Shown here: positions 1,354-23,554 of the stretch, one piece after another | Layout of the letters: every line of letters starts with the position of its first letter | Numbering within the stretch: the stretch's first letter is position 1 | IMG/VR virus record: IMGVR_UViG_2529293141_000017 | Coordinates: 1 to 25,976 of that record | From: a virus | Taxonomy: Duplodnaviria; Heunggongvirae; Uroviricota; Caudoviricetes | Strand: one strand, 5' to 3' | Length of the DNA stretch: 25,976 nt | The notes under the pieces: model-generated | Seen by the model: only the letters and a program-made list of their open reading frames with translations | What the model was told of the DNA's origin: nothing | The model's database searches: none | Position numbers and translations under genes: made by a program

Positions 1354-1387
1354 CCGCAGGCCGGGAAACCGGTACTGCGGTTTTTTT
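1354..1387 (+). terminator. Rho-independent terminator-like hairpin immediately upstream of stf
   Basis: CCGCAGG ... CTGCGG stem with a nested CCGG pair, followed by T7, then GGGGG and the ATG at 1401. Confidence 0.5.
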
Positions 1388-1400
1388 ATGGGGGAAATCC

Positions 1401-2801: not shown

Positions 2802-2810
2802 GGGCATTGT

Positions 2811-3304: not shown

Positions 3305-3350
3305 CGGGGAGAAAATCACGGACCTGCTGACCGCGGAGAAAGCGCGAGGG

Positions 3351-3707
3351 ATGAAGGGCGATGAAATTAACGCCTGGCGTAATGCGATGGAAGCGGCGAA
3401 CTACACGTTTGAGCACAATGGGCGTAAATGGGACTACGGGAAGTCAACGCAGACGCGTCTTGAGCCATCGGTGGCGGCGGCGAAAGCGGGGAAACTGCCG
3501 GAGGCGTTTTTCTGGACGGATGCGGAAAACAATGATGTGCCGGTGACAGCAGAAGAGCTTATTGCGCTGAGTGAAGCGGCAGAGCAGGCGATGTTCACTA
3601 AAGGGATGGAAATCCACATTCGCCAGCGCACCATGAAGAAGGACCTGGAATCGCTGAGCAGTGCGGATGAGATCCTGGCATACAGGGTTGGCTGGGCACA
3701 GGAATAA
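3351..3707 (+). CDS. tfa: Downstream part of the same tail fibre assembly gene (or a separate 118-aa chaperone-domain ORF)
   Basis: The frame is open from 3285 and reads ...FDGEKITDLL..., completing the W-G-F-D-G motif of the upstream ORF. ATG 3351 has only a poor Shine-Dalgarno. Confidence 0.45.
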   Translation: MKGDEINAWRNAMEAANYTFEHNGRKWDYGKSTQTRLEPSVAAAKAGKLPEAFFWTDAENNDVPVTAEELIALSEAAEQAMFTKGMEIHIRQRTMKKDLESLSSADEILAYRVGWAQE

Positions 3708-3870
3708 CAGACAAAAAGATGGGGGACCATCACCTCCCCCATGAACTGCGTTGATTATGTCATTATTGTGAAGATATACACTATGCCGGGTAAATAGTGC
3801 CACGGAAAAGTTAATTCCGGAAGTGACGGAACTCTCATTTTTCGCGCATCCTGTTGATATGGATGATTTT

Positions 3871-4200
3871 TCAGATTTCCGGAAGTCCGTATTTTGCCCG
3901 GGCGCGGTTGCATGCTTCATTTGCGATGCCATTTTCTCCGGACATTGCGAATTCCCGGCACGTGGACGGACGGTTTTTGTAAACAGAGCAATATGCGTTT
4001 TTACCCGGAGTTCCCGCCAGAGCGACACATCGGGGATTTTTCTGACTGGTGCCGCGCATACAGCGATGAAAGGGGGATATTTGCTCAGTGAGACTGACCG
4101 GAACCTTTCCGCCAGCATCGTCAGCTTCTGCCCAGTAAAAAGAGACGCGGAAAAATGCACAACAGGCACCACACGTCATGCATGGATTCGGATTGTTCAT
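3871..4200 (-). CDS. YkgJ-family Cys-cluster (CxxCxxCC) zinc/iron-chelating protein, prophage moron
   Basis: [12 protein letters not shown]...RCMRGT...PRCVALAG...[14 protein letters not shown] fits the YkgJ-type pattern. Start chosen at MNNPNPC; an alternative in-frame ATG lies at 4257. Confidence 0.5.
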
Positions 4201-4299
4201 TTTTATACTATTTGTTGTTTTTTCAGCGATCAGATCAAAGGACGCTGAAAAAAACATTCTCCAAAATTAAATTATAACTATTTGATTTTATGGATAGAG

Positions 4300-8994: not shown

Positions 8995-9195
8995 GTTAAG
9001 CATCCACAGGCTGGTATCTGCAACCGATTATAACGGATGCTTAACGTAATGCGTGAAGTATGGACATATTTTATCAATTAGTGTTTTTTGCCGTTTCATA
9101 ATGTTTCAGGTTGTGCATTATGTTTTTGATTATAAACAGATTTGTGATTTTTCTTGTTCCAGCTTGTTTCACGTTGTAGCCCTTTGTGCAACGAT

Positions 9196-9221
9196 CGGTG
9201 TAGTTAATGGTGTAGTTAATT
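9196..9221. repeat. Candidate attL core (CGGTGTAGTTAATGGTGTAGTTAATT)
   Basis: Direct repeat of 24410-24435; lies immediately 5' of the int start. Confidence 0.55.
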
Positions 9222-9242
9222 GTGATGACCGGATTCAAAATT

Positions 9243-10472
9243 ATGAGCAGAGCACTTAACAAACTGAGCGATACACAGCTGAGGAAAATCAACGGCACAC
9301 CCGCCCAAAAAACAGCCTTTCTTAATGACGGTGGAAACCTGAGCGTCAGGCATTCAACCAGTGGCCTTTTAACCTGGTATTTCACTTACAGGGCCGGAAC
9401 GGGAAGGGGGGCACCACCGGAACGCATTAAGCTGGGAAATTATCCTGATCTGAGCCTGAAATCAGCCAGGGAAAAAGCCGCCCAGTGTCGCGCATGGCTG
9501 GCAGAGGGGAAAAATCCACGTCATGAAATGAATTACACCGTACAGGAAGCGTTAAAGCCGGTAACGGTTGGCGATGCGCTCACCTACTGGCTTGAGTCGT
9601 ACGCAAAGGAAAACCGTGTGGATTATGACCCACTGAAAAAGCGGCTAAATAATCACGTAATACAGCACATTGGCCCTATGCCGCTGGATAAATGCGAGCT
9701 ACGGCACTGGCTGACCTGTTTTGATCGGGTGGCAAAGAAAGCCCCTGTTTCCGCCGGGTTCCTGCTACAGACATGCAAGCAGGCGCTTAAGTTCTGCAGG
9801 AAGCGGCGCTATGCAATCAGCAACGTTCTTGATGATATGAGTGTGGCGGACGTTGGGAAAAAACCGGATATAAGTGAGCGTGTCTTAAGTAACAAAGAAC
9901 TTGGCGAATTATTGCAGGCACTGGACAAAAAAATATTTTCCCCTTACTACGTCGCACTAATCCGCCTCCTGATTGTTTTCGGATGCCGGACAGTAGAACT
10001 GAGGTTATCGGAGATCGGCGAGTGGGATTTTACCGAAATGCTCTGGACCGTTCCGAAGGAGCACAGCAAAACGAAGGTAGCCATATTCCGGCCCATACCG
10101 GAAGCGATACTGCCGTTCGTCACGCAGCTGGTGGAGCAGAACAGGCACACGGGCTTATTGCTGGGGGAAGTGAAACAGGAAACCAGCGTATCGCAGTACG
10201 GCAGATTGGTGCACAGGAGGCTTAAACACCCTCACTGGTCACTGCATGACATCCGGCGCACCTTTACAACCATGCTGAACGATTTAGGCGTTGATCCTCA
10301 CGTCGTGGAGCAGCTTACAGGCCACCAGATGCCAGGAATGCAACGCGTGTACAACCATTCCCGCTATATTGATGCGAAACGCAATGCGCTTGATATGTGG
10401 GTGGAGCGGTTGGAGATACTGGCGGGAACACATGAAAACGTAACCACGCTACCAGTAACCAGAATAAAATAA
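9243..10472 (+). CDS. int: Tyrosine integrase (P4-type)
   Basis: N-terminal LSDTQLRKI...NDGGNLSV...WYFTYR arm-binding-like region, and a C-terminal catalytic region with HDIRRTF and a terminal RY...H. Alternative ATG at 9222. Confidence 0.88.
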   Translation: MSRALNKLSDTQLRKINGTPAQKTAFLNDGGNLSVRHSTSGLLTWYFTYRAGTGRGAPPERIKLGNYPDLSLKSAREKAAQCRAWLAEGKNPRHEMNYTVQEALKPVTVGDALTYWLESYAKENRVDYDPLKKRLNNHVIQHIGPMPLDKCELRHWLTCFDRVAKKAPVSAGFLLQTCKQALKFCRKRRYAISNVLDDMSVADVGKKPDISERVLSNKELGELLQALDKKIFSPYYVALIRLLIVFGCRTVELRLSEIGEWDFTEMLWTVPKEHSKTKVAIFRPIPEAILPFVTQLVEQNRHTGLLLGEVKQETSVSQYGRLVHRRLKHPHWSLHDIRRTFTTMLNDLGVDPHVVEQLTGHQMPGMQRVYNHSRYIDAKRNALDMWVERLEILAGTHENVTTLPVTRIK

Positions 10473-10846
10473 TTTTTTTCGTGTTTTTTCAGTATGCGCA
10501 TACTGGATAAGTGCACAGATACAACGTGAAACAATGTGCAATAACGTGACACAATCACGAACAAGAGGCCAAAAAGAATACAGATTTATAAGTTACTGAT
10601 TTTTAATGCTCAGCTGGTTTTTTATACATTAGTGAATTACGCGTTAAAGCGTGCGAAAAAAGGCATAAAACAAGATTTTATGCCTTTGTATTAACATGAA
10701 TTTAAATGATTTTATCCTGATTATTCCTCTTTCTGTAAACCATGCGACACCAACATTTGCCAACTCTGAATCATCCTGACACAATCAGACACATCCCAAC
10801 GCAATAGAACACGAAATAACTCTTTAAGAAACGAAAGGGGGCAATA

Positions 10847-11035
10847 GTGTTAAGCACTGATCGGTTTATACGTGAAAAAGAATGCGAAAAGCTAACAGGC
10901 CTTAGCCGCTCATGCCGCTACCGCCTGGAAAAGGCCGGACAATTCCCATCACGTCGTAAACTTGGCGGGCGTTCTGTTGGCTGGTCTTTATCTGAGGTTT
11001 TGGCCTGGAAGGATAGCTGCAAGGCAGTTCACTAA
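10847..11035 (+). CDS. alpA: AlpA-family (MerR/Xis-like) transcriptional regulator
   Basis: 62 aa with LTGLSRS..YRL...FP..RKLGGRSVGW, matching the AlpA pattern. GTG start with an AAGGGGG Shine-Dalgarno. Confidence 0.75.
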   Translation: MLSTDRFIREKECEKLTGLSRSCRYRLEKAGQFPSRRKLGGRSVGWSLSEVLAWKDSCKAVH

Positions 11036-11215
11036 AAAGACTGGCGGCACACAGCCACCACCAATCCATTATTGACCGATACCGGGATCTCGGTATCGGG
11101 AATAAACGCCATAATACTGAGGTATAACCATGATGAAATATACGCCCGTACAGGGGCGGGGATTCGTTCGCCCTGGTGAATCTGAAAAGCCATGCTATAG
11201 GGTATTTTCAGGCAT

Positions 11216-11243
11216 AAAAAAAGCGGTCCCGATATGGAACCGC
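11216..11243 (-). terminator. Rho-independent terminator for the minus-strand repressor cassette
   Basis: On the minus strand: GGCGGTTCC atatc GGGACCGC followed by T7. Confidence 0.45.
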
Positions 11244-11311
11244 CTTTCTGAACAATTAACCCGCTGCGCCGTATGTGTCAACAATCATAAGCCCGAACAT
11301 GATAACCGTGA

Positions 11312-11515
11312 TCAGGCTGGTGGGCAATTACCTTGCTTGTTGGGGCCGTATTGTGCTGCCATTTTCATCCGTTCAGAACGTGAATATTTTTTTAGAAACT
11401 CATCAAGGACAAAAGCGCATGGAGCGAATCTTTCTGATTCATGCTCGAGCGCCATATTTTCGTGCTCTCTGTTCGTTTTTTGCGATGGTGTATTGGTTGA
11501 TTCTTTATTGGTCAT
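11312..11515 (-). CDS. Hypothetical small protein (67 aa), second gene of repressor cassette A
   Basis: Paralogue of 12028-12255: shared MTN start and a conserved C-terminal F-x-L-D/E-x-F-x-K-Y-x-R motif. It is followed by a terminator. Confidence 0.45.
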   Translation of the reverse strand: MTNKESTNTPSQKTNREHENMALEHESERFAPCAFVLDEFLKKYSRSERMKMAAQYGPNKQGNCPPA

Positions 11516-11572
11516 TGTGTGTACCTGTAAAGCAATGCGCCGTAGTACCTCACGCCACGGCGCTGATAGTAA

Positions 11573-11752
11573 TTATTCTGATTCTTTGGCCTTGCGGCGC
11601 TGGCGGCGTTTGATCTCGCCTTTTGCTGCCGTAACTAGAAATCCGGCGGTACTTTCGCCAGGTTCTTTAAGTTGCTCAATATCGGTCATTACCTCATGCG
11701 GGATTCTGACCGTTGTCATTTGTGATTTTGCGTTCTTTGCACCTGTTGCCAT
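11573..11752 (-). CDS. Ribbon-helix-helix DNA-binding protein (59 aa), candidate island repressor, copy A
   Basis: Own translation MATGAKNAKSQMTTVRIPHEVMTDIEQLKEPGESTAGFLVTAAKGEIKRRQRRKAKESE, with a beta-strand / helix / helix pattern. AGGAGA Shine-Dalgarno 7 nt upstream. Divergent from a plus-strand promoter and operators. Confidence 0.55.
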   Translation of the reverse strand: MATGAKNAKSQMTTVRIPHEVMTDIEQLKEPGESTAGFLVTAAKGEIKRRQRRKAKESE

Positions 11753-11771
11753 TTCTGGTTCTCCTGATAAT

Positions 11772-11864
11772 CGGTGTATTTCAGTATACGCAAAAAAAAG
11801 ATAAAAAAAGTCTTGCGGTGTATTTCACCTGAATGTAGATTTAAAAATGAAGGTGAAATACACC
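11772..11864. promoter_or_regulatory. Operator/promoter region A: GGTGTATTTCACC in three copies, two forming a perfect 13-bp inverted pair
   Basis: 11817-11829 and 11852-11864 are exact reverse complements; a third direct copy lies at 11772-11783. The region sits between divergent genes. Confidence 0.45.
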
Positions 11865-11938
11865 CAAAACAACAACGCCCCGCAGTGATGGGAACACATA
11901 CGGGGCGTCTAACCAAACCATTAATTGAGGTAACGATT

Positions 11939-12010
11939 ATGGCTATAAAAGAGCATAGCTTACTCTTTATACACACACAAACGCCCCGGAAACGGAATAA
12001 TCCGTTTCAT
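11939..12010 (+). pseudogene. Truncated 5' remnant of an Icd-like gene (paralogue of 12685-12879)
   Basis: MAIKEHSLLFIHTQT... shares the M-x-x-x-H-x-x-x-L-x-HTQT start with 12685, then loses similarity where cassette B begins. Confidence 0.35.
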
Positions 12011-12027
12011 AGTTCGGTTTTGTGCAC

Positions 12028-12255
12028 TCATCCTGGCGGTCGGTTTTTGCCGGATTTAAGCCGCCGTGGGTATTTATCGACAAAATCTTCAAGGGCAAAT
12101 TTTTCTGGTGGCACTAAGCGCGGCGCTGGTGGTGGTATTTTTGTTCTGGTTAGTTCTTCCTCAACTCTGGCGCAGGCTTCTGACTGCCTTTGCCGGATGA
12201 TTTCATCATCTTGCGTTTGCGTGTCTTGTATTGGTGATAGTGTGTTGTTGGTCAT
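12028..12255 (-). CDS. Hypothetical small protein (75 aa), second gene of repressor cassette B
   Basis: Paralogue of 11312-11515, same position in the cassette. Confidence 0.5.
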   Translation of the reverse strand: MTNNTLSPIQDTQTQDDEIIRQRQSEACARVEEELTRTKIPPPAPRLVPPEKFALEDFVDKYPRRLKSGKNRPPG

Positions 12256-12312
12256 GATACTGCCCTGTAAAGCAATGCGCCGTAGTACCTCACACCACGG
12301 CGCTGATAGTGA

Positions 12313-12492
12313 TTATTCTGATTCTTTGGCCTTGCGACGCTGGCGGTATTCAACTTCCCGCTTTAATGCAGCTGTAACAAACTGCCCTGTACTTTCGCCG
12401 GGCATTTTTACCGCCTCAACATTGTTCATAACTTCATGTGGAACCCTTGCCGCAACTGTTTGTGATTTTGCGTTTACTGCTTTTGTCGCCAT
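12313..12492 (-). CDS. Ribbon-helix-helix DNA-binding protein (59 aa), candidate island repressor, copy B
   Basis: MATKAVNAKSQTVAARVPHEVMNNVEAVKMPGESTGQFVTAALKREV.... GAGGGG Shine-Dalgarno upstream. Divergent from the replication operon. Confidence 0.6.
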   Translation of the reverse strand: MATKAVNAKSQTVAARVPHEVMNNVEAVKMPGESTGQFVTAALKREVEYRQRRKAKESE

Positions 12493-12542
12493 GTTGAGCA
12501 CCCCTCATAAAAAACAAATGCAGTATGCAGGAAAAAAAACAA

Positions 12543-12594
12543 GTGTTCAACACTTGACGTGTTTAACACCTCGATTTAAATTGGTGTTCAACAC
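12543..12594. promoter_or_regulatory. Operator/promoter region B: three GTGTT(C/T)AACAC palindromes overlapping a TTGACG-N17-TAAATT promoter
   Basis: Palindromes at 12543, 12559 and 12584 bracket the -35 and -10 of the plus-strand promoter feeding 12685 onward. Confidence 0.5.
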
Positions 12595-12684
12595 CTTATT
12601 TAGGCAAGGTGTAGAAACGACGAAACCCCGCACTGTAGGAGCAGTAACGGGGCTTCTAACCAACAACGTAAACGAGGAGCCGTT

Positions 12685-12879
12685 ATGGTTGCCGTAAATC
12701 ATATACCACACCTTGTACACACACAAACGGCCTTTGTGTGGCGTTTTCTGGCACTGAGTGCCGGAGAATCTCAAATCATCCACGTAACCGCCTGGACGGA
12801 ACGCGAAGCGCGTAACCTTTGCCCGTCCGGTTGTGTTGCTGTATTTGCCGCCCGTATTCGCCAGGGGGTAGGCTTATGA
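12685..12879 (+). CDS. Small protein, possibly Icd-like (host cell division inhibitor family); first gene of the early operon
   Basis: 64 aa with a GAGGAG Shine-Dalgarno. The motif FVWRFLALS...TEREAR...FAARI resembles Icd-like proteins of P4-type elements, from memory only. Confidence 0.5.
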   Translation: MVAVNHIPHLVHTQTAFVWRFLALSAGESQIIHVTAWTEREARNLCPSGCVAVFAARIRQGVGL

Positions 12880-13109
12880 GCCAGGAAATCACACTACAAC
12901 AGGCAGCAGAACGCGCCCACCAAATCGAAGTTATTTGCGCACTGGCAGAGGATTACCCTGGCATGATGACCGACAGCGAATCAGGGGCAATCATCGGCTT
13001 ACTTAAACGCCTTAGCGGTGAGGTCTGCGTATTCCTGAGCGATGAACAGGAAAGAAGAACGCTTATTTCTAACGAAAAAAAATGCGGAGGGGTACACCAT
13101 GTGCAATAA
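12876..13109 (+). CDS. Hypothetical protein (77 aa)
   Basis: ATG overlaps the upstream stop (ATGA); GGGGGT Shine-Dalgarno; translationally coupled. Confidence 0.5.
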   Translation: MSQEITLQQAAERAHQIEVICALAEDYPGMMTDSESGAIIGLLKRLSGEVCVFLSDEQERRTLISNEKKCGGVHHVQ

Positions 13110-13341
13110 CATCCGTCCGGACGCAGCCGCCGCCGCACTCACTACGCTGATGCACGCGCTTATTGATATTGAATGCACGGCAGAGCTTGCACAAAAGGAA
13201 GAACGGGAGGAATACACATTGTTCGCCCTGGAATGTATCCGATACACCGCCACGCGGTCGCTGAATGACGCTAAAAATATTCTTGTTGCAGATTGTGAAA
13301 ATGGGGGGGGGTTATGCGTGATGATCGTTTTAATTCCCTGA
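13099..13341 (+). CDS. Hypothetical protein (80 aa) with a G9 tract near its 3' end
   Basis: GGAGGGG Shine-Dalgarno before ATG 13099; overlaps the neighbouring genes. Confidence 0.45.
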   Translation: MCNNIRPDAAAAALTTLMHALIDIECTAELAQKEEREEYTLFALECIRYTATRSLNDAKNILVADCENGGGLCVMIVLIP

Positions 13342-13547
13342 AACAAGAATTTTCCGGCGTTCCTGATGATGCGGCTGATGCGCTTTCGTCAATGCCAGAA
13401 CTTATTAGAGCGGCTTTTTTCTTACTTTCCACGAGAGAATATAAATCAACGGGGCTTGATGTACTGAATATCGCCGCCGATTATGCGGAATATGTGGCAG
13501 AGGCGCGTTACAGAAGAAAATTTCCTGAGGATGTAAGCCATGCGTGA
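13314..13547 (+). CDS. Hypothetical protein (77 aa)
   Basis: ATG directly after the G9 tract, which serves as its Shine-Dalgarno; operon context. Confidence 0.5.
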   Translation: MRDDRFNSLKQEFSGVPDDAADALSSMPELIRAAFFLLSTREYKSTGLDVLNIAADYAEYVAEARYRRKFPEDVSHA

Positions 13548-13773
13548 TATTTACCACGAAACAACAGAACGCGTATTTCTTGCACTTTCTCACAGTGAAA
13601 ACATGCTGGAAATATTGCGCATATGGCTTGAAACACTTGGCGACAATGAACGCGACAAACAAAAATCAAGAATTGTCACGGCATTAATAACGCTTCTTGA
13701 GCCTGTAATAATGGAACTACAAGAAATAGAGACATTGCACGACAGATATAACGAACAGCACACCGGAGAATAA
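13540..13773 (+). CDS. Hypothetical protein (77 aa)
   Basis: Start overlaps the upstream stop (ATGCGTGA); operon context. Confidence 0.5.
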   Translation: MRDIYHETTERVFLALSHSENMLEILRIWLETLGDNERDKQKSRIVTALITLLEPVIMELQEIETLHDRYNEQHTGE

Positions 13774-13778
13774 AAATA

Positions 13779-14078
13779 ATGAAACTTAAATATTCTGGCT
13801 TAACTGCCAGTGGCAACACTCACCCTAAATTTACGCGCGGTGATATTTACCGCGACCAGTACGGCGGTACGGTAATGATTAAGGGCGTGGCGGGACGGTG
13901 CGTAACTTACCGCCGTGAAGGTTACGAATATGATTGCGTGATGCCTGTTTATCAGTTCCGGCGTGATTTTTCTCTGGTACAGACCGCGCCGCATAACGTG
14001 CCCACCAGCAGGGAGAAAGCACGCGCCAATATTCAGAAGATGAAAAACATGATTAACGGATTCAGGGGCAAGAAATGA
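13779..14078 (+). CDS. Hypothetical protein (99 aa), translationally coupled to the helicase gene
   Basis: Stop overlaps the helicase ATG (ATGA). Confidence 0.55.
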   Translation: MKLKYSGLTASGNTHPKFTRGDIYRDQYGGTVMIKGVAGRCVTYRREGYEYDCVMPVYQFRRDFSLVQTAPHNVPTSREKARANIQKMKNMINGFRGKK

Positions 14079-15472
14079 AAAGCGCACCGAACTTAAAAAA
14101 ACAGCCTTACGACAAGATGACCGAAGTCATCATTTTTGCGGGTAGTGATGCGTGGGCACATGCGAAACAGTGGCAGGAACAGGACGGGCGACTGGCTGGC
14201 GATAATGTGCCTCCCATTGTGCTGGCTGATGATCAACTGGATGAACTGGCAGACCTGAGAATCATCGACGAGGGGCGCTATTGTGTCCGGCTGTACAAGG
14301 CAGGCCACATCAGGCCATCAAATATTAATGCCATTGCGCACAAGCTGGCGGCGGCGGGCGTAACTGATGCGAATTATTACCCCGAAGGGATACACAGCCA
14401 GAAGCGGGAGAACTGGCGCGAATATCTGGAACGGGAGCGGGGGAAAAAGCCAGGGGAAGAACACCACCAGCGAAAAACCACGCTACCGATGAGCGTTGGA
14501 TCTGCCGGATACGACACGCAATTAGATTACGTGGTAAAGGGGATTATTCCGGCATCGTCGCTTTGCAGCATATACGGGGCGAGCGGTTCCTATAAATCAT
14601 TCCTTGCGGGTTCGTGGGCGTGTCACGTTTCCACGGGCCGCCAGTGGGGAGGCCGCAGGGTGGCGCATGGCGCTGTTCTCTATGTGGTTGGTGAAGGCGG
14701 TATCGGCGTTCCGCGTCGTGTAAAAGCCTGGGAGGTTGTGCACGGTGAGCAGGTGAAAAATCTGTATCTGGTAAACCGTCCCATCTTTCCGGCGGTCCCG
14801 CTTGATGTTGATGAAATGGTTATCGCTGCCCGTCAGGTGGAGCGGGAAACGGGTAAACCTGTACGCATGATTATTCTGGATACGCTGGCGCGTTGCTTTG
14901 GTGGGAATGATGAAAATGATTCCCGTGATATGGGGGCGTTTATCCGTGGTTGTGACGAACTGAAACGACGCACAGGGGCCACGGTGCTGGTGGTTCACCA
15001 TTCCGGCAAGGATGAGACGAAAGGCGCGCGCGGTTCCAGTGCATTTCGTGCATCACTGGATGCTGAATACCGGATACGCAGGGAGGACGCAGGAAGCGAA
15101 GCGCTGGTTATCTCATGCACCAAAATGAAGGACGCGGAGGAACTCAAAGAAGCCGCATATGACTTACGCGTGGTGGAGCTGTTTACCGACGCTGACGGGG
15201 AGTTAATCACGTCGCTGGTGGTGGTGGATAAGCCGCGCCCTCCCGTTGAACTGGAGCGCATCGAGGAGGCAGGCAACAAGACGGAAAACCATACCGCACT
15301 ATGGGGGTGCATCCGTTCACGCACACAGAACGGCGACAAGTGCACGATCCCGCTGTTACGTGATGACATGAAACGGCTTGGGTATGACGTGAAAAATATG
15401 CGGCGATGGTTAGCCAAACTGGAAAAAGACGCCGTGATTTACATTGATGGTGATGATGTAGGACCACTGTAA
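14075..15472 (+). CDS. Replicative ATPase/helicase (RecA-fold, RepA/AAA_25-like) with an N-terminal domain of unknown role
   Basis: Walker A GASGSYKS, Walker B-like ILDTLARCFGG, and VVHHSGKD...GARGSSA motifs. Confidence 0.8.
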   Translation: MKSAPNLKKQPYDKMTEVIIFAGSDAWAHAKQWQEQDGRLAGDNVPPIVLADDQLDELADLRIIDEGRYCVRLYKAGHIRPSNINAIAHKLAAAGVTDANYYPEGIHSQKRENWREYLERERGKKPGEEHHQRKTTLPMSVGSAGYDTQLDYVVKGIIPASSLCSIYGASGSYKSFLAGSWACHVSTGRQWGGRRVAHGAVLYVVGEGGIGVPRRVKAWEVVHGEQVKNLYLVNRPIFPAVPLDVDEMVIAARQVERETGKPVRMIILDTLARCFGGNDENDSRDMGAFIRGCDELKRRTGATVLVVHHSGKDETKGARGSSAFRASLDAEYRIRREDAGSEALVISCTKMKDAEELKEAAYDLRVVELFTDADGELITSLVVVDKPRPPVELERIEEAGNKTENHTALWGCIRSRTQNGDKCTIPLLRDDMKRLGYDVKNMRRWLAKLEKDAVIYIDGDDVGPL

Positions 15473-15672
15473 AAAGTGAGTAGCAAAAGTGAGTAATGAT
15501 GAGGTTTTTACAAAATATTAACACGATTACTCACTTTCTCACCTGTATACATGCTCAAAAGTGAGGAGTAAAAAAATCATTATGAAACATACACATAAAG
15601 CATCAAAAAATATCAAGTGAGACGAAGCGAGACGCTTTAAAAAGTGAGGTGTAAAAGTGAGCATGAGTGAGG
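15473..15672. repeat. Iteron array (AAAGTGAG, at least 7 direct and 1-2 inverted copies) with an AT-rich spacer: candidate island replication origin
   Basis: Copies at 15473, 15486, 15530 (inverted), 15558, 15615, 15641 and 15654, immediately 3' of the helicase gene. Confidence 0.55.
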
Positions 15673-15926
15673 AGATAACCAAAATGCGCAGAGACAGAAC
15701 AGGGCCGAAATATAAAGCGTTAGACATGACAGAGCACGCCTTAAAGGTGGCAATCAGGGTAATAGACCGCCACGCGGGGGAAGGATACGCGAAAGCACAT
15801 CCCGAACTGATAAGCGCATTCATGACCACGACGGCGGCAAATTTTGCCACGCTGACAGAGCGGGAGATTGCCGAAGCGGAACAGGTAACAACCATCAACG
15901 TTAAAACCGGAGAGGTGGAATCATGA
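15663..15926 (+). CDS. Hypothetical protein (87 aa)
   Basis: ORF begins inside the last iterons; its stop overlaps the next ATG. Confidence 0.4.
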   Translation: MSEEITKMRRDRTGPKYKALDMTEHALKVAIRVIDRHAGEGYAKAHPELISAFMTTTAANFATLTEREIAEAEQVTTINVKTGEVES

Positions 15927-16228
15927 GCGAACCAAAATTTGGTGAAAAATTTTACAAGCACAACGGACGGATCACGATTCTGCAAATAAGCGCAGCTACA
16001 CCAGGCTGGTGGGTTGAAACAGACGAAGGATCCTCACCCGTGGCATCATGGGCGCTTTGTGTGCTTAGTTACCCTGACCGCGATGTGTATCAGGATATTC
16101 TGCCTGTGATATCCACTGACAAAGGCATGAAACCCGTAGACATCAAAAACATGGGGTTTCAGTGCGTAATGCTCACTGAAAAAATGATGGAAGAGATGAA
16201 AAAGAACAATGCCGGATCGCTTCACTGA
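15923..16228 (+). CDS. Hypothetical protein (101 aa)
   Basis: Coupled ORF upstream of ssb. Confidence 0.5.
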   Translation: MSEPKFGEKFYKHNGRITILQISAATPGWWVETDEGSSPVASWALCVLSYPDRDVYQDILPVISTDKGMKPVDIKNMGFQCVMLTEKMMEEMKKNNAGSLH

Positions 16229-16237
16229 GGTGGCAAT

Positions 16238-16648
16238 ATGACAGCACAAATTGCAGCTTACGGGCGGCTGGTGGACGACCCGCAGGTAAAACAGAGCAGC
16301 AAGGGCACACCGATGACTCTGGCGCGTATGGCGGTATCGTTGCCATGCAGCCAGGCACATGACGGACAGGCGACGTTATGGTTATCGGTTATCGCATTTG
16401 GCAAACAGGCCGATTTCCTGGCTAAACATCAAAAAGGCGATGTTGCCAGCGTATCCGGCACGATGCAGGTAAGCCAGTGGACCGGACAGAACGGGGAAAC
16501 GCGGCGGGGGTATCAGGTTATTGCAGACAGCGTAATCAGTGCCCGCGCGGCACGTCCAGGCGGGAACAGACGCAAAACCACAGGCACACAGGGTAATCAG
16601 CCACCAGCGGGAGGCGATGACCCTTACGGTGACGGTATTCCGTTCTGA
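16238..16648 (+). CDS. ssb: Single-stranded DNA-binding protein
   Basis: OB-fold-like N-terminal region, a Gly/Pro/Gln-rich linker, and an acidic C-terminal tip DDPYGDGIPF (compare DDDIPF of SSB). Confidence 0.8.
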   Translation: MTAQIAAYGRLVDDPQVKQSSKGTPMTLARMAVSLPCSQAHDGQATLWLSVIAFGKQADFLAKHQKGDVASVSGTMQVSQWTGQNGETRRGYQVIADSVISARAARPGGNRRKTTGTQGNQPPAGGDDPYGDGIPF

Positions 16649-16658
16649 GGGGGTGACG

Positions 16659-16907
16659 ATGGTACATGACCGCATAGCGGAGGAACTCGAGGCAAAAGGC
16701 TTTTACCGGAGGGCGTCGGCGCGATGGGGTGAAGTCATGCAACTGGTGGAGACAGACAAGGAACGGCATCAGGTTACGATGCGACGGCTGGAATGTTCCA
16801 GGAAGGCACAGAGGCCACCGGAGCCGCCAACGGAGAACTACGCAGACCTGAGAAATGCAGTAAATCGCACTTACGCAGACATGGGGCTGAGCAAATTAGC
16901 AGAGTAG
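16659..16907 (+). CDS. PerC-family-like transcriptional regulator (82 aa)
   Basis: MVHDRIAEELEAKGFYRRASARWGEVM resembles the PerC/Pch N-terminal motif; GAGGGGG Shine-Dalgarno. Confidence 0.5.
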   Translation: MVHDRIAEELEAKGFYRRASARWGEVMQLVETDKERHQVTMRRLECSRKAQRPPEPPTENYADLRNAVNRTYADMGLSKLAE

Positions 16908-17173
16908 GAATATCAGAACCACACCATACAGCCGGAGCAATCCGGCTTTTTGTTATTTTTTGTAAATTATTTGTTCGTGGTTGTTCCACGTTGTTCACTG
17001 AGCGGATCGGCATATTTTACCCGAACTGAATCATGATTATTCTCGCCCGTGGTGCCAGGACGCTGGGGCCACTTTCCCGCCTGTTAATGTGCTCGCCAAT
17101 ATTCATTACCAGGCGGGAAAACGATCGGTGCGATTGCTGATTTCCTTATGAAAAACGGTTGAGTGTTTGCCGC

Positions 17174-17211
17174 GTCCTGGAGTTCCTTACTTAACCCCAG
17201 GACTTTTTTTT
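17174..17211 (+). terminator. Terminator-like hairpin plus T8 ending 1 nt before the major capsid ATG
   Basis: GTCCTGG ... CCAGGAC stem followed by TTTTTTTT and then ATG 17212. Confidence 0.45.
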
Positions 17212-18369
17212 ATGCCGAGAATAATCGAATTACGCCAGCAGAAAACCGCCATTAAAAATCAGATGCGCGACATGCTGGAGAACGCTGAAAAAGAAAACCG
17301 CAGTCTTAACGATGCTGAGGGCGCAAAATTTGACGAATTACGCGCTAAAGCTGAATCCCTCGATAAAGACATTTCCCGCCTTGAAGCCATTGCAGACGAA
17401 GAGCGCAGCAAGCCAGGTAAAAGCAGTCAGACCACTGACCCCGCAGAACTACGAAACTACATTCTGACGGGTGAAACCCGCGCATTAAGTACAGGCGTTC
17501 CCGCTGATGGTGGTTATACCGTTATCCCCGAACTGAACACCGAAATCATGCGAATGCTGACGGATGAATCCACCATGCGCCGCATCTGTACCGTGAAGAA
17601 AATCAGCAGCAACGAGTTTAAGCAGCTTGTTTCCGCTGGCGGTGCGACCGTTAACCACGGTGAAGAGGGTAAGGCACGCGAACAGACCAGCACCCCGCAG
17701 ATTAACGAGGTGAGCATTAAGCTGTATCCGGTCTATGCGTACCCGCGCACCACACAGGAAATCGTGGATTTTTCCGATGTGGACATCCTTTCATGGCTGA
17801 CGGGTGAGATTGGCGACACCTTCACGGAAACCGAAGAAAGCGATCTGGTTGTGGGCGACGGTGACAAAAAAGCAAAAGGTTTTTTATCCGTACCCCGTGC
17901 AGAGAAGAACGACAAAGAGCGTGATTTTGGTACGTTGCAGGTAATTAAACCTTCCGAATCTCTGGCGTGGACATCTGCGGACCCGTTGATCGACCTGAAA
18001 TTTGCATTACGTAAAAAATACCGCAAAAACGCGGTCTGGGTGGTTAACTCCACGACGGCGGCAAAACTTCAGAAGGTGAAGAACGCGAACGGTGATTACA
18101 TCTGGCGCGACCGTTTACAGGCGGGTGATCCTGATACGTTGCTGGGCCTTCCGGTCGAATATCTGGAGTTTATGCCTGATAACGTTATTGCCCTGGGTGA
18201 CTTCAAACGCGGTTACTACATTGTTGATCACGAAACAGGTGTTCGCACCAGACCGGACAACCTCACAGAGCCGGGCTTCATCAAAATTTTCACGCAGAAA
18301 TATTTAGGCGGTGGCGTGGTGGATTCGAACGCGATCAAGATTCTGGAACTGCCACAGGACGACGATTAA
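17212..18369 (+). CDS. Major capsid protein (HK97 fold)
   Basis: Coiled-coil delta-domain-like N-terminus, ~385 aa, followed by a prohead protease gene. The TTG at 17167 is rejected because it would read through the hairpin. Confidence 0.88.
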   Translation: MPRIIELRQQKTAIKNQMRDMLENAEKENRSLNDAEGAKFDELRAKAESLDKDISRLEAIADEERSKPGKSSQTTDPAELRNYILTGETRALSTGVPADGGYTVIPELNTEIMRMLTDESTMRRICTVKKISSNEFKQLVSAGGATVNHGEEGKAREQTSTPQINEVSIKLYPVYAYPRTTQEIVDFSDVDILSWLTGEIGDTFTETEESDLVVGDGDKKAKGFLSVPRAEKNDKERDFGTLQVIKPSESLAWTSADPLIDLKFALRKKYRKNAVWVVNSTTAAKLQKVKNANGDYIWRDRLQAGDPDTLLGLPVEYLEFMPDNVIALGDFKRGYYIVDHETGVRTRPDNLTEPGFIKIFTQKYLGGGVVDSNAIKILELPQDDD

Positions 18370-18423
18370 CAGCATACAGAAGGGGCTTAAAAGCCCCTTT
18401 AGTGTTTTATGGGTGAAAAAATT

Positions 18424-18981
18424 ATGAAGAGTATGGAAATCCGGTCATCGGAAATCACCACCAGCGGAGCCGGTACGCTGACGGGCTACGTTGTTCGCTG
18501 GGATAAGCTTTCAGAACTGTTATGGGGTGAGTTTTACGAAAAATTCCAGCGGGGAGCGTTTACTGAATGGCTTGCAGCGGGTAATGACGTTCGCGGCCTG
18601 TATGAGCATGACCACAGTATGTTACTGGGGCGTACCCGTTCCGGCACGCTGAAACTGGAAGAGGACGAAACAGGGTTACGCTTTGAACTGACCCCACCGG
18701 ATACCAGCACAGGGCGGGACGTTATCGAACTGGTTAAACGTGGTGATATATCCGGCATGAGCTTTGGCTTTCGTTCCCGTAAGGATGTATGGGATACCAC
18801 AACAGATCCATGCGTGCGCACCGTGCTGGTGGCGGAACTGTACGAAATTACCGTTACATCCGTTCCGGCTTACCCTGATTCCGGCGTGGAGCTGGCCCGC
18901 CGTTCCCTGTATGAGCAGCACCCCGAAAAAATGCCGCGTGCGGATAATCGCCGCTGGTGGGTGGATTTAGCGGGGGTGTGA
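18424..18981 (+). CDS. Prohead maturation protease (HK97-family)
   Basis: Position between capsid and portal genes, and size. Alternative ATG at 18409. Confidence 0.8.
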   Translation: MKSMEIRSSEITTSGAGTLTGYVVRWDKLSELLWGEFYEKFQRGAFTEWLAAGNDVRGLYEHDHSMLLGRTRSGTLKLEEDETGLRFELTPPDTSTGRDVIELVKRGDISGMSFGFRSRKDVWDTTTDPCVRTVLVAELYEITVTSVPAYPDSGVELARRSLYEQHPEKMPRADNRRWWVDLAGV

Positions 18982-18982
18982 T

Positions 18983-20194
18983 ATGTGGCCTTTCAGAAGA
19001 AAAAAAGAGCAGCGCAGCATGACGCTTGATGAATTTATGGCGCTGGCTGGCACATCGAACACGGGGGCGGGTGAGTACGTATCATCGGGGACAGCGGAAT
19101 CACTGCCCGCCGTCATGAACGCCGTCACGGTCATCTCTGAGGCGGTGGCTACCATGCCGTGTTACCTGTACCTGGTACGCAATGAGAAGGGGAAGGAGGC
19201 CCGCGAGTGGCTTGATTCTCATCCGGTCGATCACATCCTCAACGAGCGCCCGAACGCATGGCAAACCCCCTACCAGTTTAAGCGAATGATGATCCGCCAC
19301 TGCCTGTTAAACGGTAATGCTTATGCGGTGATTCAGTGGGGGCGTGATGGTTTTCCGGCGGCTTTACATCCTTACCCGCCGCAGTCGGTGAACGTGGAGC
19401 AGACAGGCGAACACAACTGGCGCTACTGCATCACTGACGCCTACACCGGAAACACCCGCAACTATTTACCGTGGGAAGTACTTCACCTTCGTTACTCCAC
19501 GGATGACGGCTTTATGGGGCGCTCACCTGTAACCATCTGCCGCGAATCGCTGGGGCTTGGGCTGGCCCAACAACGCCACGGCGCGAGCGTGATGCGTGAT
19601 GGCATGATGGCGGCAGGGGTTATCACGTCAGGCGAATGGCTGGACGGCGTGAAGGGCAAACAGGCATTAGCCGCACTGGAACGCTACAAAGGGGCCAGAA
19701 ACGCCGGAAAAACGCCCATCCTTGAAGGGGGGATGAGCTATCAGCAGCTGGGCATGAGTAATCAGGATGCTGAATGGCTGGCCTCCCGTCGCTTCACCAT
19801 TGAAGACATCGCCCGAATGTTCAACGTCTCGCCGATTTTTTTGCAGGAATACAGCAACAGCACCTACAGCAATTTCAGCGAGGCAAGCCGCGCATTTCTC
19901 ACCATGACGATGCGCCCGTGGCTGGCGAACTTTGAGCAGCAGATAAAAAACGCCCTGCTGGTGGCCTCGCCTGTACCTGGTATCCGGTATCAGGTGGAGT
20001 TTGACAGCGCGGACCTGTTACGGGCCACACCTGGCGAACGCTTTGCCACCTATGAGCGCGGCATCAAATCCGGCGTTATGTGCCCGAACGAAGCCCGCGA
20101 ACGTGAAGGACTGTCACCGCGTGATGGTGGTGATGAGTTCAGTCAGGCATGGAAACAGGAAGTAAAAATCAGCGAGGGAGAAAAACCGGAATGA
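18983..20194 (+). CDS. Portal protein
   Basis: 403 aa immediately downstream of the protease, with a GGGGG Shine-Dalgarno. Confidence 0.88.
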   Translation: MWPFRRKKEQRSMTLDEFMALAGTSNTGAGEYVSSGTAESLPAVMNAVTVISEAVATMPCYLYLVRNEKGKEAREWLDSHPVDHILNERPNAWQTPYQFKRMMIRHCLLNGNAYAVIQWGRDGFPAALHPYPPQSVNVEQTGEHNWRYCITDAYTGNTRNYLPWEVLHLRYSTDDGFMGRSPVTICRESLGLGLAQQRHGASVMRDGMMAAGVITSGEWLDGVKGKQALAALERYKGARNAGKTPILEGGMSYQQLGMSNQDAEWLASRRFTIEDIARMFNVSPIFLQEYSNSTYSNFSEASRAFLTMTMRPWLANFEQQIKNALLVASPVPGIRYQVEFDSADLLRATPGERFATYERGIKSGVMCPNEAREREGLSPRDGGDEFSQAWKQEVKISEGEKPE

Positions 20195-20529
20195 ACATAG
20201 GGCGACTGCGTGACAGGATAACGATTCAGACCCTGAAACAGACCAGAGCCATGACGGGCGAAATACTCGAAACGTGGGAGGACGGTCACACACTCTGGGC
20301 AAGCGTGAACATGATCAGCAGCAAGGAGGCCATTTCATCGGGCGCAGAGCTGGCGATTGGTACCGTAAGGATCTGGATACGGTACCGGAAGGACATCAAC
20401 GCCACCAGCCGGATAAAGGTCAGTACGGGGCCGCTGGCGGGGCGTGTACTGAATATCATCGGGCAGCCGTTGCCGGATGTCGCCAGGACACGCCTTGAAA
20501 TTCTTTGTCGTGAGGGCGCGGAAAAATGA
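20191..20529 (+). CDS. Head-tail adaptor / head closure protein
   Basis: Small coupled ORF after the portal gene (ATGA overlap); the longer start at 20149 is rejected. Confidence 0.55.
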   Translation: MNIGRLRDRITIQTLKQTRAMTGEILETWEDGHTLWASVNMISSKEAISSGAELAIGTVRIWIRYRKDINATSRIKVSTGPLAGRVLNIIGQPLPDVARTRLEILCREGAEK

Positions 20530-20822
20530 CAGAAGAACTTATCACCCTGGAAGAAGTGAAACTCCATTGCCGTATCGATGGAGACGAGGAAGACCAGTTA
20601 ATCAGCGGATACATTGCCGCATCGCTTGAGGCGTGCCAGATACACATAGGCAGGCGCTTTGATGACGGGCTGGAGTTCACGCCAGCCATAAAGATTGGCT
20701 GCATGATGTTTATCGCTCACCTGTATGAGAATCGCCAGATTGTCGCGGATAACGCAAAAACACGCGTACCCATGACGATTGGCGCACTCTGGACGGCTTA
20801 CCGTGATGTGGGGGTGTACTGA
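20526..20822 (+). CDS. Head-tail connector (gp6-like)
   Basis: 98 aa, coupled, in the typical position. Confidence 0.55.
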   Translation: MTEELITLEEVKLHCRIDGDEEDQLISGYIAASLEACQIHIGRRFDDGLEFTPAIKIGCMMFIAHLYENRQIVADNAKTRVPMTIGALWTAYRDVGVY

Positions 20823-21262
20823 TGCCGTGGCAACCATTAAGACGATGCACAGAACCAGGCTGTAACAGGCGCGTTAAATCCGGCAAGTGTGAAGAGCACA
20901 GGCGGGCGGCATGGCGTGCAGAGGATGCCAGACGAGGACACCGCCGCGCGCGTGGATATTCCAGACAGTGGGACAAATACCGCGCCATGTATCTGAGTAA
21001 AAACCCGTTATGCGTGCGATGCCTTGAGAAGGGGATATATACGCCCGCCGTGGTGGTGGATCACATTATCCCGATTAATGGCGGTGATGATGTTCTCTTC
21101 TGGCCCGAATGGAACCATCAACCATTGTGTCAGGCGTGTCATAACCAGAAAACGAAATGGCTTGATCCGGCAACAAAAAGCAAGCGTGCCGCAGGTGGAT
21201 TTCGTGAAGAGGAAGAACGGGCCGCTAACCGCAATAACTGGATGTATGACGCTGATGAATGA
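20822..21262 (+). CDS. HNH endonuclease (terminase-associated)
   Basis: Cys-rich N-terminus and DHIIP...N.QPLC..CHN.KT HNH motif; located just upstream of terS. Confidence 0.85.
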   Translation: MPWQPLRRCTEPGCNRRVKSGKCEEHRRAAWRAEDARRGHRRARGYSRQWDKYRAMYLSKNPLCVRCLEKGIYTPAVVVDHIIPINGGDDVLFWPEWNHQPLCQACHNQKTKWLDPATKSKRAAGGFREEEERAANRNNWMYDADE

Positions 21263-21431
21263 GCGGGAACAAAACCGCCTTATCCGTGGACTTATAAGGC
21301 AGCGTGACGCATGGAAGACACAGGAAACAGGGCATAAAGATAAAGCGTCAGGACGTGCAGAACGCATCACAGCGAAGCGATTAACCGACCGTGACCGCGA
21401 GGTTATGGAATGTTTCCGCAATCGCTGGTGA
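21255..21431 (+). CDS. Candidate small basic protein (58 aa) overlapping the HNH stop
   Basis: Own translation MNEREQNRLIRGLIRQRDAWKTQETGHKDKASGRAERITAKRLTDRDREVMECFRNRW; the ATG overlaps the HNH stop by 8 nt. Confidence 0.3.
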   Translation: MNEREQNRLIRGLIRQRDAWKTQETGHKDKASGRAERITAKRLTDRDREVMECFRNRW

Positions 21432-21552
21432 TGCTGTATGACGGGGTGGGGGGGCGTTTTCAGGACAAACCCGACCCCGCCGGGCACCGAACGCCTCCTC
21501 AAATTTTTATGCACGGGAATTTTTTGAAAAATAATCTGGCGAAAAAATAAGC

Positions 21553-21909
21553 ATGGCAAGACCACCGAAAGCCCCCGCCTACCTGGATGATATCGCCGTG
21601 AAGCAGTGGCGGGAAAAATCGCGGCAGCTTGCGGAACGGGGTGACCTGACCCCCGCCGACTGGAGTAATCTGGAACTGTATTGCGTCAATTACTCGATAT
21701 ACCGGAAAGCCGTCGCAGACCTTGCGGCGCGCGGGTTCAGCATTGTTAACAGTCAGGGCGGAGAGAGCAGAAACCCCGCATTAAGCGCGAAATCCGACGC
21801 GGAAAGAGTGATGATAAAAATGGCCTCCTTGCTCGGTTTTGACCCGATAAGCCGCCGTAAAAATCCACCGGAAACAGAAGAAGAGGACGAGCTTGACCGC
21901 CTGGAATAA
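21553..21909 (+). CDS. terS: Terminase small subunit (P27-family-like)
   Basis: MARPPKAPAYLDD... N-terminus; overlaps the terL start. Confidence 0.75.
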   Translation: MARPPKAPAYLDDIAVKQWREKSRQLAERGDLTPADWSNLELYCVNYSIYRKAVADLAARGFSIVNSQGGESRNPALSAKSDAERVMIKMASLLGFDPISRRKNPPETEEEDELDRLE

Positions 21910-23554
21910 GTACGCAGAAGACGTAAAAACGGGCAAAATTCCGGCCTGTAAACGGCTGAAACAGGCCGTTAAACGGTACTTTTCGGACCTTGAAAGCCCC
22001 CTTTACACGTTCGATCGTGAGGTTGTGGAGCGGTTTATTGCCTTTTCCAGGGTGTGCCCGCACGTAAAAGGGCCGATGCGTGGCAGACCCATTGAGCTGG
22101 AGCCGTGGCAGCAGTTCGCCTTTGCGTGCATCCTCGGCTTTAAGGTTAAGGCCACCGGACGGCGCAAATACACGAGCGCCTTTATCGAAGTGCCGCGCAA
22201 AAATGCGAAATCCACGACCGCCGCGATTCTGGCTAACTGGTTTCTGATTATGGAGAACGGGCAGCAGGATATTTACACCGCAGCGGTGAGCCGTGACCAG
22301 GCGCGGATCGTTTTTGATGATGCGCGTCAGATGTGCCTTTTATCCCGACCGTTACGCAGGCGGGTGAATATTCAGGCCCACAAGGTGATGCACCCGAAAA
22401 GCAACAGCCTGTTAAAGCCGCTGGCAGCAAAAGCGGCAACCATCGAGGGAACAAACCCCAGCCTTTCCATCGTGGACGAATACCACCTACACCCCGATAA
22501 CGGCGTTTATTCCGCGCTTGAGCTGGGGATGGGCGCACGTCCCGAAGGGCTGTTATTTGCCATTACCACATCGGGCAGTAACGTCGTTTCAACCTGTAAA
22601 CAGCACTATGATTATTGCTGCCAGATCCTGGACGGCGAAGAGGTCAACGATTCAATTTTTGTGCTGATTTACGAGCTGGACGACGAAAACGAGGTTGATG
22701 ATCCGGCGATGTGGATAAAGGCTAACCCTAACATCGATGTTTCCGTGGATCGTGAAAAACTGGCCTCAACCATCCAGAAAGCGCGGGGTATTCCGTCGCA
22801 ATGGGTGGAGATGATGACAAAGCGATTTAATATCTGGTGCCAGGGGGCTACCCCGTGGATGGGTAACGGCGCATGGGCTGAGTGTGCCGGAACGTTCACG
22901 GAGGAAGATTTACACGGGCAGGAGTGTTACGCGGGGCTGGACTTATCATCAACCAGCGATATTTCCAGCGTGTGCTATGCCTTTCCGGTCGGTAAAAATA
23001 TCATGCTGGTTTCCCGTCATTATCTGCCGGAGTTCCAGCTACAGAACCCCGCCAATAAAAACCGCGCTGTCTATCGCCAGTGGGCTAAAGCGGGCTGGAT
23101 ACGCACAACGCCAGGTGACTGCATTGATTACGACCGGATCAGAGATGACATCATGCAGGATGCGGAGAAATTTAATATCAGGCTGGTGGGCTTTGATACG
23201 TGGAACGCCACGCATCTCAGGACGCAATTACAGGGGGCTGGTTTTGAGGTGGAGCCGTTCCCGCAAACCTACCTCAGATTCAGTCCGGCGGCGAAATCGT
23301 TCGAAGTTTTTGTTAACCGCAGGGTGATTGTGCATCGTGGCGATCCGGTGTTGTCCTGGTCGATGAGTAACGTCGTGATGCAGAGTGACGCGAACGCCAA
23401 TATCAAGCCGAACAAGAAAAAATCACCGAACAAGATAGACCCGAGCGTGGCGGCGCTGATGGCGTTTGGTACATTCCAGGCAGAGCATGAGGATTTTGCT
23501 TTTGATATAAGCGACAGCCACCGCCAGAAACTGGAAGAATTTAGCGGGGTGTAA
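21893..23554 (+). CDS. terL: Terminase large subunit
   Basis: 553 aa with ATPase motifs (VPRKNAKST; LSIVDEYH) and a nuclease-like C-terminal region. Confidence 0.9.
   Translation: MTAWNKYAEDVKTGKIPACKRLKQAVKRYFSDLESPLYTFDREVVERFIAFSRVCPHVKGPMRGRPIELEPWQQFAFACILGFKVKATGRRKYTSAFIEVPRKNAKSTTAAILANWFLIMENGQQDIYTAAVSRDQARIVFDDARQMCLLSRPLRRRVNIQAHKVMHPKSNSLLKPLAAKAATIEGTNPSLSIVDEYHLHPDNGVYSALELGMGARPEGLLFAITTSGSNVVSTCKQHYDYCCQILDGEEVNDSIFVLIYELDDENEVDDPAMWIKANPNIDVSVDREKLASTIQKARGIPSQWVEMMTKRFNIWCQGATPWMGNGAWAECAGTFTEEDLHGQECYAGLDLSSTSDISSVCYAFPVGKNIMLVSRHYLPEFQLQNPANKNRAVYRQWAKAGWIRTTPGDCIDYDRIRDDIMQDAEKFNIRLVGFDTWNATHLRTQLQGAGFEVEPFPQTYLRFSPAAKSFEVFVNRRVIVHRGDPVLSWSMSNVVMQSDANANIKPNKKKSPNKIDPSVAALMAFGTFQAEHEDFAFDISDSHRQKLEEFSGV

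Follow-up and report, generated by a model that had tools for sequence, protein, structure and literature searches.

The prophage-like element Sp7 of Escherichia coli Sakai, also known as CP-933C or O-island 51 (OI-51) (PMC3378721), is the prototype capsid-forming phage-inducible chromosomal island (PICI), EcCIEDL933 (bioRxiv 10.1101/2022.09.08.507074). It carries pchE, which has been classed as a group-3 perC homologue (Andreozzi and Uhlich; PMC6265319, PMC7369912). Overexpression of PchE lowers csgD and curli, eae, lpfA1 and stpA while raising flhDC, fliC and motility (PMC6265319, PMC7369912), and it raises ler more than 2-fold (PMC7369912). In O157, pchE is transcribed on a polycistronic ECs1586-ssb-pchE RNA that was mapped by rapid amplification of cDNA ends (PMC7369912), and its expression is basal and lowered on SOS induction (PMC6265319, PMC7369912). 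More broadly, PerC-family regulators have been called common in Gram-negative PICIs, and the perC genes of EcCIMP1, EcCICFT073 and EcCIEDL933 have been aligned (2025 ISME J, PMC11773190). Here, we analyze a perC-type gene located between ssb and a capsid operon in the IMG/VR virus record IMGVR_UViG_2529293141_000017 (Caudoviricetes), whose positions 1 to 25,976 are hereafter called the window. We found that this gene is a pchE allele, specifically that of the classical PICI EcCICFT073 from E. coli CFT073, here placed in a capsid-forming PICI (cf-PICI) of the EcCIEDL933 type.

The perC open reading frame (ORF; coordinates of all features are in Table 1) is intact, with an ATG start and 82 codons plus a stop codon according to the ORF list and its translation, and its product begins MVHDRIAEELEAKGFYRRASARWGEV. 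An alternative in-frame GTG start at 16539, giving 122 aa, was considered and rejected because it overlaps ssb, because all homologues start with MVHD or MI.D, and because the RefSeq start is 16659. The overlap between the perC Shine-Dalgarno sequence and the ssb stop codon is consistent with co-transcription of ssb and perC, and the position of the Shine-Dalgarno sequence suggests that translation of perC may be coupled to that of ssb.

The preliminary description of this gene had assigned it to the PerC family from an N-terminal motif only and had proposed a profile search as the check. That search returned a strong match to the Pfam family PF06069 (PerC), with E = 1e-35 and 122.3 bits compared to a curated gathering score of 22.6 bits, extending over residues 1–78 and profile positions 1–77 of 90. 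The protein also matches PHROG 994 (phrog_994; E = 1.6e-38). In an alignment of 25 PerC-family members (32–81% identity), nine columns are invariant, and the window protein keeps all of them (M1, D4, L10, E11, R17, R18, A19, R22 and W23), so the N-terminal motif is real; the near-invariant A7, E8, G14, C46, M75 and G76 are likewise kept. The protein therefore has the family core M-x-x-D-x-x-A-E-x-L-E-x-x-G-x-[YW]-R-R-A-x-x-R-W, the Cys near position 46 and a size within the range of ~80–100 aa. One feature differs from most of the family: most members have a C-terminal M-G-[IL]...(F/W)-R-x-Y tail, of which the window protein keeps M75-G76-L77 before ending ...SKLAE, without the (F/W)R-x-Y motif. 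The matched part of the Pfam profile does not include this tail, and family membership is therefore unaffected.

RefSeq annotates identical DNA in E. coli chromosomes as 'PerC family transcriptional regulator' (WP_000233314.1). Related DNA (at least 80% identity) is present in 769 of 5426 complete E. coli genomes, and the window allele itself (at least 99% identity) is found in 28 complete genomes, with CFT073 also carrying it. A tblastn search of 50,697 phage records with the window protein gave only two weak matches (31–40% identity); sequenced phages therefore essentially lack the PchE type.

Compared to Sakai PchE (ECs_1588), the window protein is 80% identical (E = 9e-51) and is encoded at the same locus. 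The two islands share the roxA(ycfD)/phoQ insertion site, the ssb-perC-capsid gene order, the terminator after perC and a capsid leader that is ~99% identical. This identity and synteny make the window gene an orthologue of the group-3 gene pchE, and the PerC family assignment is borne out. Residues 1–57 of the two proteins differ at three positions only, whereas the C-terminal tail has diverged and is 8 residues shorter in the window protein (82 aa versus 90 aa), which ends ...MGLSKLAE where PchE ends ...MGIDGVSDEIWRNYPDS. Sakai also has a 74-aa ORF between pchE and the capsid gene, ECs1589, which is enclosed by two copies of the terminator hairpin and is missing from the window (16907–16950, compared to L002:9046–9700 in Sakai). 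ECs1589 has no Pfam match. In six of seven divergent cf-PICIs, which are loci with 66–70% capsid identity and with DUF4222 plus a primase or helicase upstream, homologues of it precede the capsid gene; consequently, ECs1589 is more closely tied to the capsid module than PerC is.

The match to the PICI EcCICFT073 is closer still. Its PerC protein (WP_000233305.1) is identical to the window protein at 81 of 82 residues, and the two islands share the hyp-ssb-perC cassette, the terminator and the insertion site. Downstream of perC they differ: CFT073 has a capsid-like gene, a head decoration gene, more small ORFs and an unrelated leader, in a region that holds the redirecting-packaging (Rpp) gene c1503, whereas the window has a complete capsid and terminase operon. 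In a DNA alignment, the window matches CFT073 as far as the perC terminator hairpin and then matches Sakai at ~99% identity. Therefore, the island is a mosaic and the terminator is a module junction. Judged from this alignment, CFT073-type and EDL933-type modules are joined at the perC terminator by recombination.

The preliminary description had stated that PerC/Pch-family proteins activate virulence regulons in pathogenic E. coli. Activation of the LEE regulon (LEE, locus of enterocyte effacement) is a property of PerC from enteropathogenic E. coli (EPEC) and of the group-1 proteins PchA/B/C of enterohaemorrhagic E. coli (EHEC), with which the window protein shares PF06069, small size and the N-terminal core D-x-x-A-E-x-L-E-x-x-G-x-[YW]-R-R-A-x-x-R-W. 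The group-1 genes are located in lambdoid prophages or on the EPEC adherence factor (EAF) plasmid, not in PICIs. Among plasmid-borne PerC-family genes, those of 214 of the 217 matching plasmid records are less than 60% identical to the window protein. Group-1 Pch activates LEE1 only through relief of H-NS/StpA/Hha/YdgT silencing, and it displaces H-NS (Fukui et al., PMC4764244). PchE, in group 3, is reported to have little effect on LEE (PMC6265319), and the PerC-like proteins of EcCIEDL933 and EcCICFT073 had no effect on LEE1-lacZ, according to the passage of PMC11773190 that cites Porter 2005. The general statement thus holds for EPEC PerC and group 1 and, per the literature, does not apply to the group-3 subgroup. 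The further suggestion that the gene could cross-talk with host loci is documented for PchE on overexpression, through the csgD/curli, eae, lpfA1 and flhDC/fliC responses (PMC7369912); for the window allele we infer it.

A third PICI protein extends the comparison. EcCIMP1_025, from the PICI EcCIMP1 of E. coli MP1, is likewise the product of a PerC-family gene in an int-alpA-primase PICI, is ~40% identical to the EcCIEDL933 and EcCICFT073 proteins, and represses LEE1-lux in Citrobacter rodentium in a dose-dependent manner (PMC11773190). This repression is a result for EcCIMP1_025 and not one for the window allele. Its authors proposed a function of the ANR type, after a family of small three-helix proteins (e.g. 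Aar) that have no DNA-binding domain and bind regulators and H-NS (PMC11773190). The window protein resembles ANR proteins in the structure of its N-domain and by weak profile similarity over residues 7–52, whereas its score is under the ANR family cutoff and PerC proteins have an additional Pro-rich linker and C-terminal helix.

An AlphaFold2 model of the window protein, calculated with 28 homologues, has a mean predicted local distance difference test (pLDDT) score of 84.5 and places helices at residues 5–13, 16–27 and 33–51, then a Pro-rich linker, and a last helix at residues 61–74. The protein is predicted to be all-helical, with a TPR-like three-helix N-domain and no helix-turn-helix or recognisable DNA-binding fold. 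Such a helical N-domain would be compatible with ANR-like binding of AraC-family activators, of H-NS or of both. A profile search of PDB sequences with PerC returned nothing at E ≤ 10. The N-domain superposes on a phage ANR protein with weak statistics (BFVD search, no match at E ≤ 0.001). The NCBIfam ANR profile NF033650 gives the window protein 17.7 bits (E = 0.0024), below its curated cutoff of 32 bits. The same profile is weakly matched (E ≤ 0.1, best 3e-7) by 24 of the 25 diverse PerC members, and we therefore conclude that PerC and ANR are distantly related, without PerC belonging to the ANR family.

The explanation that we favor, with a confidence slightly better than even, is that the window gene encodes a group-3 PerC homologue that re-tunes host transcription in trans via protein contacts. 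In the proposed mechanism, PerC, the product of the last gene of the hyp-hyp-ssb-perC cassette of an EcCIEDL933/Sp7/OI-51-type cf-PICI, would act in trans by protein-protein contact, either with H-NS/StpA/Hha silencing complexes or with transcription factors. It would shift host transcription at many loci instead of reading a specific operator, and the window allele may share the outputs of PchE, namely repression of csgD/curli and adhesins and induction of flhDC and flagella. Because the predicted fold is all-helical, because PerC is related to ANR, and because the action of Pch on H-NS provides a precedent, a small adaptor acting on nucleoid-associated silencers or transcription factors is the most likely mechanism, and a sequence-specific DNA-binding activator is less likely. 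Of the elements behind this proposal, we established directly the family to which the protein belongs, the identity of the allele, its genomic context, the layout of the operon and the predicted fold, whereas what PchE regulates and the relief of H-NS silencing by group-1 Pch come from the literature.

Several other roles were weighed against this one. PerC could instead be an ANR-like anti-activator or repressor that, like Aar, binds AraC-family or other activators and renders them inactive; its net effect would then be anti-virulence and not anti-silencing. The weak but consistent ANR matches across the PerC family, the modelled likeness of its three-helix N-domain to the phage ANR protein, the dose-dependent silencing of LEE1 by EcCIMP1_025 with the ANR-type function proposed by its authors (PMC11773190), and the repression of adhesins and csgD by PchE all fit such a role. 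We nevertheless regard it as unlikely: the ANR match remains under the NCBIfam cutoff whereas the match to the PerC profile is very strong, PchE also activates flhDC, fliC and ler (PMC7369912), and the Pfam assignments place no AraC-family partner nearby in the island. It is far less probable that the window allele is a functionally decayed or neutral passenger that obtained a new C-terminus through recombination at the module junction and no longer has any regulatory effect. The final ~7 codons do diverge from PchE, leaving a protein that is shorter and without the (F/W)R-x-Y tail, and for the near-identical CFT073 protein the passage of PMC11773190 citing Porter 2005 reports no LEE1 effect; against such decay, the ORF is uninterrupted and has a good ribosome-binding site, the allele persists at no less than 99% identity in the 28 complete genomes and in CFT073, all nine invariant family positions are kept, and the Pfam match covers most of the profile (positions 1–77 of 90).

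The preliminary description had also raised regulation of the island's late genes. In that case PerC, as the final product of the early/replication cassette, would serve the island as its own activator of late genes by switching on the capsid/packaging promoter, a role that we consider distinctly unlikely. Its position speaks for this role: in the window cf-PICI, Sakai Sp7 and the classical PICI EcCICFT073 alike, the morphogenesis or hijacking module follows directly downstream of perC; a PerC ORF is found 246–697 bp upstream of the capsid gene in all 37 of the E. coli-type cf-PICI contigs in IMG/VR that have at least 659 bp upstream of that gene; and in 13 loci from 10 genera PerC closes the int-alpA-(DUF4222)-primase-(ssb) half, followed by a variable helper-exploitation module. 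A sigma-70 scan found no promoter in the 304-bp perC-capsid leader, which fits an activator-dependent promoter, as weak evidence from a simple scan, and the cf-PICI study mutated packaging genes only. However, six of the seven divergent cf-PICIs have neither ssb nor PerC within 6 kb, yet their capsid operon is retained, as is the leader box, either TTTTGTAAATTAT itself or a close variant, and the same PerC allele precedes unalignable leaders in CFT073 and in the window island. Consequently, these comparative data do not support PerC as an essential late-gene activator. In addition, pchE is on without island induction and is lowered by SOS (PMC6265319, PMC7369912), an intrinsic terminator stands between perC and the leader, the predicted PerC fold has no DNA-binding domain, and the master activator established for Gram-negative PICIs is AlpA. 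PerC may otherwise be aimed at the helper phage, either modulating helper transcription like P4 Delta (e.g. at tail genes) or interfering with it. A cf-PICI requires only tail genes from its helper, and perC is kept at the border with helper-exploitation modules in satellites of many genera, including the plant-associated Erwinia, Pantoea and Lonsdalea, in which the LEE carried by attaching-and-effacing pathogens would not be expected; this conserved border position argues for a satellite-related role. An action on the helper is nevertheless very unlikely, given that pchE is expressed without a helper and repressed on SOS induction, that PerC is absent from most divergent cf-PICIs, and that among the EcCICFT073 genes downstream of the replication origin (ori) only c1503 blocked lambda.

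The element that carries perC is an int-alpA-DUF4222-helicase island set between roxA and phoQ. Members of the cf-PICI class have int, alpA, a replication gene and their own capsid-to-TerL genes, are without tail and lysis genes, measure ~15 kb and use a dedicated attachment site. The window island belongs to this class (EcCIEDL933 type) by its Pfam gene content, its dedicated site and its extent (~9.2–24 kb of the window), and no tail or lysis families are present among the Pfam assignments of its ORFs. The location of perC between the SSB gene and the capsid operon, as first described, was confirmed (Table 1), and the operon is ordered capsid, S78 protease, portal, head completion, connector, HNH, TerS and TerL.

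Table 1. Position, strand and supporting evidence of features in the 25,976-nt window
Feature	Position	Strand	Evidence
Island left half	9222–15472	+	Pfam; roxA/phoQ flanks as in Sakai Sp7 and CFT073
Tyrosine integrase	9222–10472	+	Pfam
AlpA	10847–11035	+	Pfam
DUF4222/RgdR homologue	13779–14078	+	Pfam
RepA-like AAA_25 helicase, 465 aa	14075–15472	+	Pfam
Two small hypothetical genes opening the ssb-perC cassette (15657/15663–15926 and 15923–16228)	15657–16228	+	ORFs; RefSeq coding sequences
SSB gene, directly upstream of perC	16238–16648	+	PF00436, E = 3.3e-16; RefSeq
Shine-Dalgarno sequence GAGGGGG of perC	16647–16653	+	Read in the sequence; overlaps the ssb stop codon
perC/pchE-type gene, group 3, EcCICFT073 allele	16659–16907	+	ORF; PF06069; identity to PchE and EcCICFT073; RefSeq
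Intrinsic terminator closing the ssb-perC cassette	16930–16957	+	Terminator scan; 7-bp stem AGCCGGA/TCCGGCT, 4-nt loop, T-run
Structured capsid-operon leader	16958–17211	+	Sequence; ~99% identical to Sakai
Leader box TTTTGTAAATTAT	16958–16970	+	Sequence
Three 10-bp direct repeats with GTTGTTC	16970–16999	+	Sequence
10-bp inverted repeat TTCCCGCCTG/CAGGCGGGAA	17074–17083 / 17110–17119	+	Sequence
Hairpin GTCCTGG/CCAGGAC plus T8, abutting the capsid ATG	17174–17203	+	Sequence
cf-PICI capsid/packaging operon	17212–23554	+	Pfam matches of all eight proteins
HK97-type capsid gene	17212–18369	+	Phage_capsid PF05065, E = 2e-61

The product of the DUF4222 gene shares 81% identity with Sakai ECs1581 (RgdR), for which positive regulation of LEE/type III secretion and motility has been published, and the island therefore carries, with PerC, two small regulators with reported host cross-talk. 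Two ORFs of 224 and 307 aa at 11130–12697 have no Pfam match, nor do the two hypothetical proteins that open the ssb-perC cassette. The replication gene is a RepA/AAA_25 helicase in the window, compared to larger primase-type proteins at the same position in Sakai Sp7 (L002:5601–7733) and EcCICFT073 (L004:8242–9996), which is a further sign of module shuffling in this island family. Between the helicase gene and the hyp-hyp-ssb-perC cassette, an AT-rich gap at 15450–15650 (29–34% GC) is probably the ori of the island, the promoter region of the cassette, or both; in O157, the start of the pchE transcript was mapped to the corresponding gap. At the other end of the cassette, the terminator hairpin proper occupies 16930–16947, just after perC.

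The RefSeq genomes that are 100% identical to the window over 15600–18400 show an offset of ~1 kb between roxA/int and the helicase gene (window 9000–15600 compared to locus L001), so that the left half of the window island is not the same as theirs. By analogy with L001, window positions 1–4250 appear to hold type III secretion effector genes (NleG-family, EspW and DUF1076) from an adjoining prophage near potAB, which would indicate a host strain of the attaching-and-effacing or Shiga toxin-producing E. coli type.

The leader downstream of the perC terminator is strongly structured, with an RNA folding energy of -80.3 kcal/mol (z = -4.2), and the capsid ATG has no Shine-Dalgarno sequence. The terminator-like hairpin just before this ATG is a hint that the late operon may be controlled by attenuation or antitermination. 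In the divergent cf-PICIs, including those without PerC, the leader box occurs in exact or closely variant form at a similar distance from the capsid ATG. No Rfam family was found in 15300–17400. A PerC target common to the CFT073 and window leaders, downstream of the terminator, was also considered and set aside, the alignment showing no shared sequence there.

The 13 loci from other hosts were retrieved with the pattern LEA[KR]G[LF][YW]RRA, which biases the set toward PchE-like members, and their 10 genera are represented by Escherichia albertii and E. ruysiae, Atlantibacter, Enterobacter, Kluyvera, Shimwellia, Lonsdalea, Pantoea, Chimaeribacter and Erwinia. In several of them, the variable module after PerC includes tape-measure and DUF5681 proteins. 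Satellites of Erwinia, Pantoea, Lonsdalea, Chimaeribacter and Enterobacter (L021:11190–15199; L008, L015, L018, L019) have, after PerC, one lipoprotein-like ORF, an ORF of 109 aa, a large tape-measure gene and DUF5681. The tape-measure protein matches PF20155 with E = 4e-57 in the L021 copy, the sole copy scanned. L021 and its related loci are an int-alpA-primase satellite type with its own tape-measure gene.

The window gene itself is already known: RefSeq annotates it, studies exist of its orthologue pchE, and several papers note PerC homologues in Gram-negative PICIs; the family assignment, the PICI location and the host cross-talk are thus all published. The remaining novelty is a possible role of conserved PerC-type proteins in the satellite life cycle. 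We tentatively propose, as a possible but doubtful reading, that the PchE-type PerC is an ancestral backbone component of Enterobacterales int-alpA-primase satellites, encoded by the last early gene ahead of the variable helper-exploitation module and having a satellite-intrinsic job, and is not virulence cargo. This is the place of the gene in the 13 loci from 10 genera, those of the plant-associated Erwinia, Pantoea and Lonsdalea included. If so, its job could be to relieve or re-shape H-NS silencing of island or helper DNA, or to set host physiology for transfer, and its control over LEE, curli and flagella in pathogenic E. coli would have arisen secondarily, by exaptation. The ssb-perC cassette recombines freely between classical and capsid-forming PICIs at the terminator hairpin. 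The EHEC regulator PchE and the PICI 'PerC' are the same gene, located in a satellite that makes its own capsids, and a regulator that acts on curli, flagella and adhesion can therefore move from strain to strain at high frequency.
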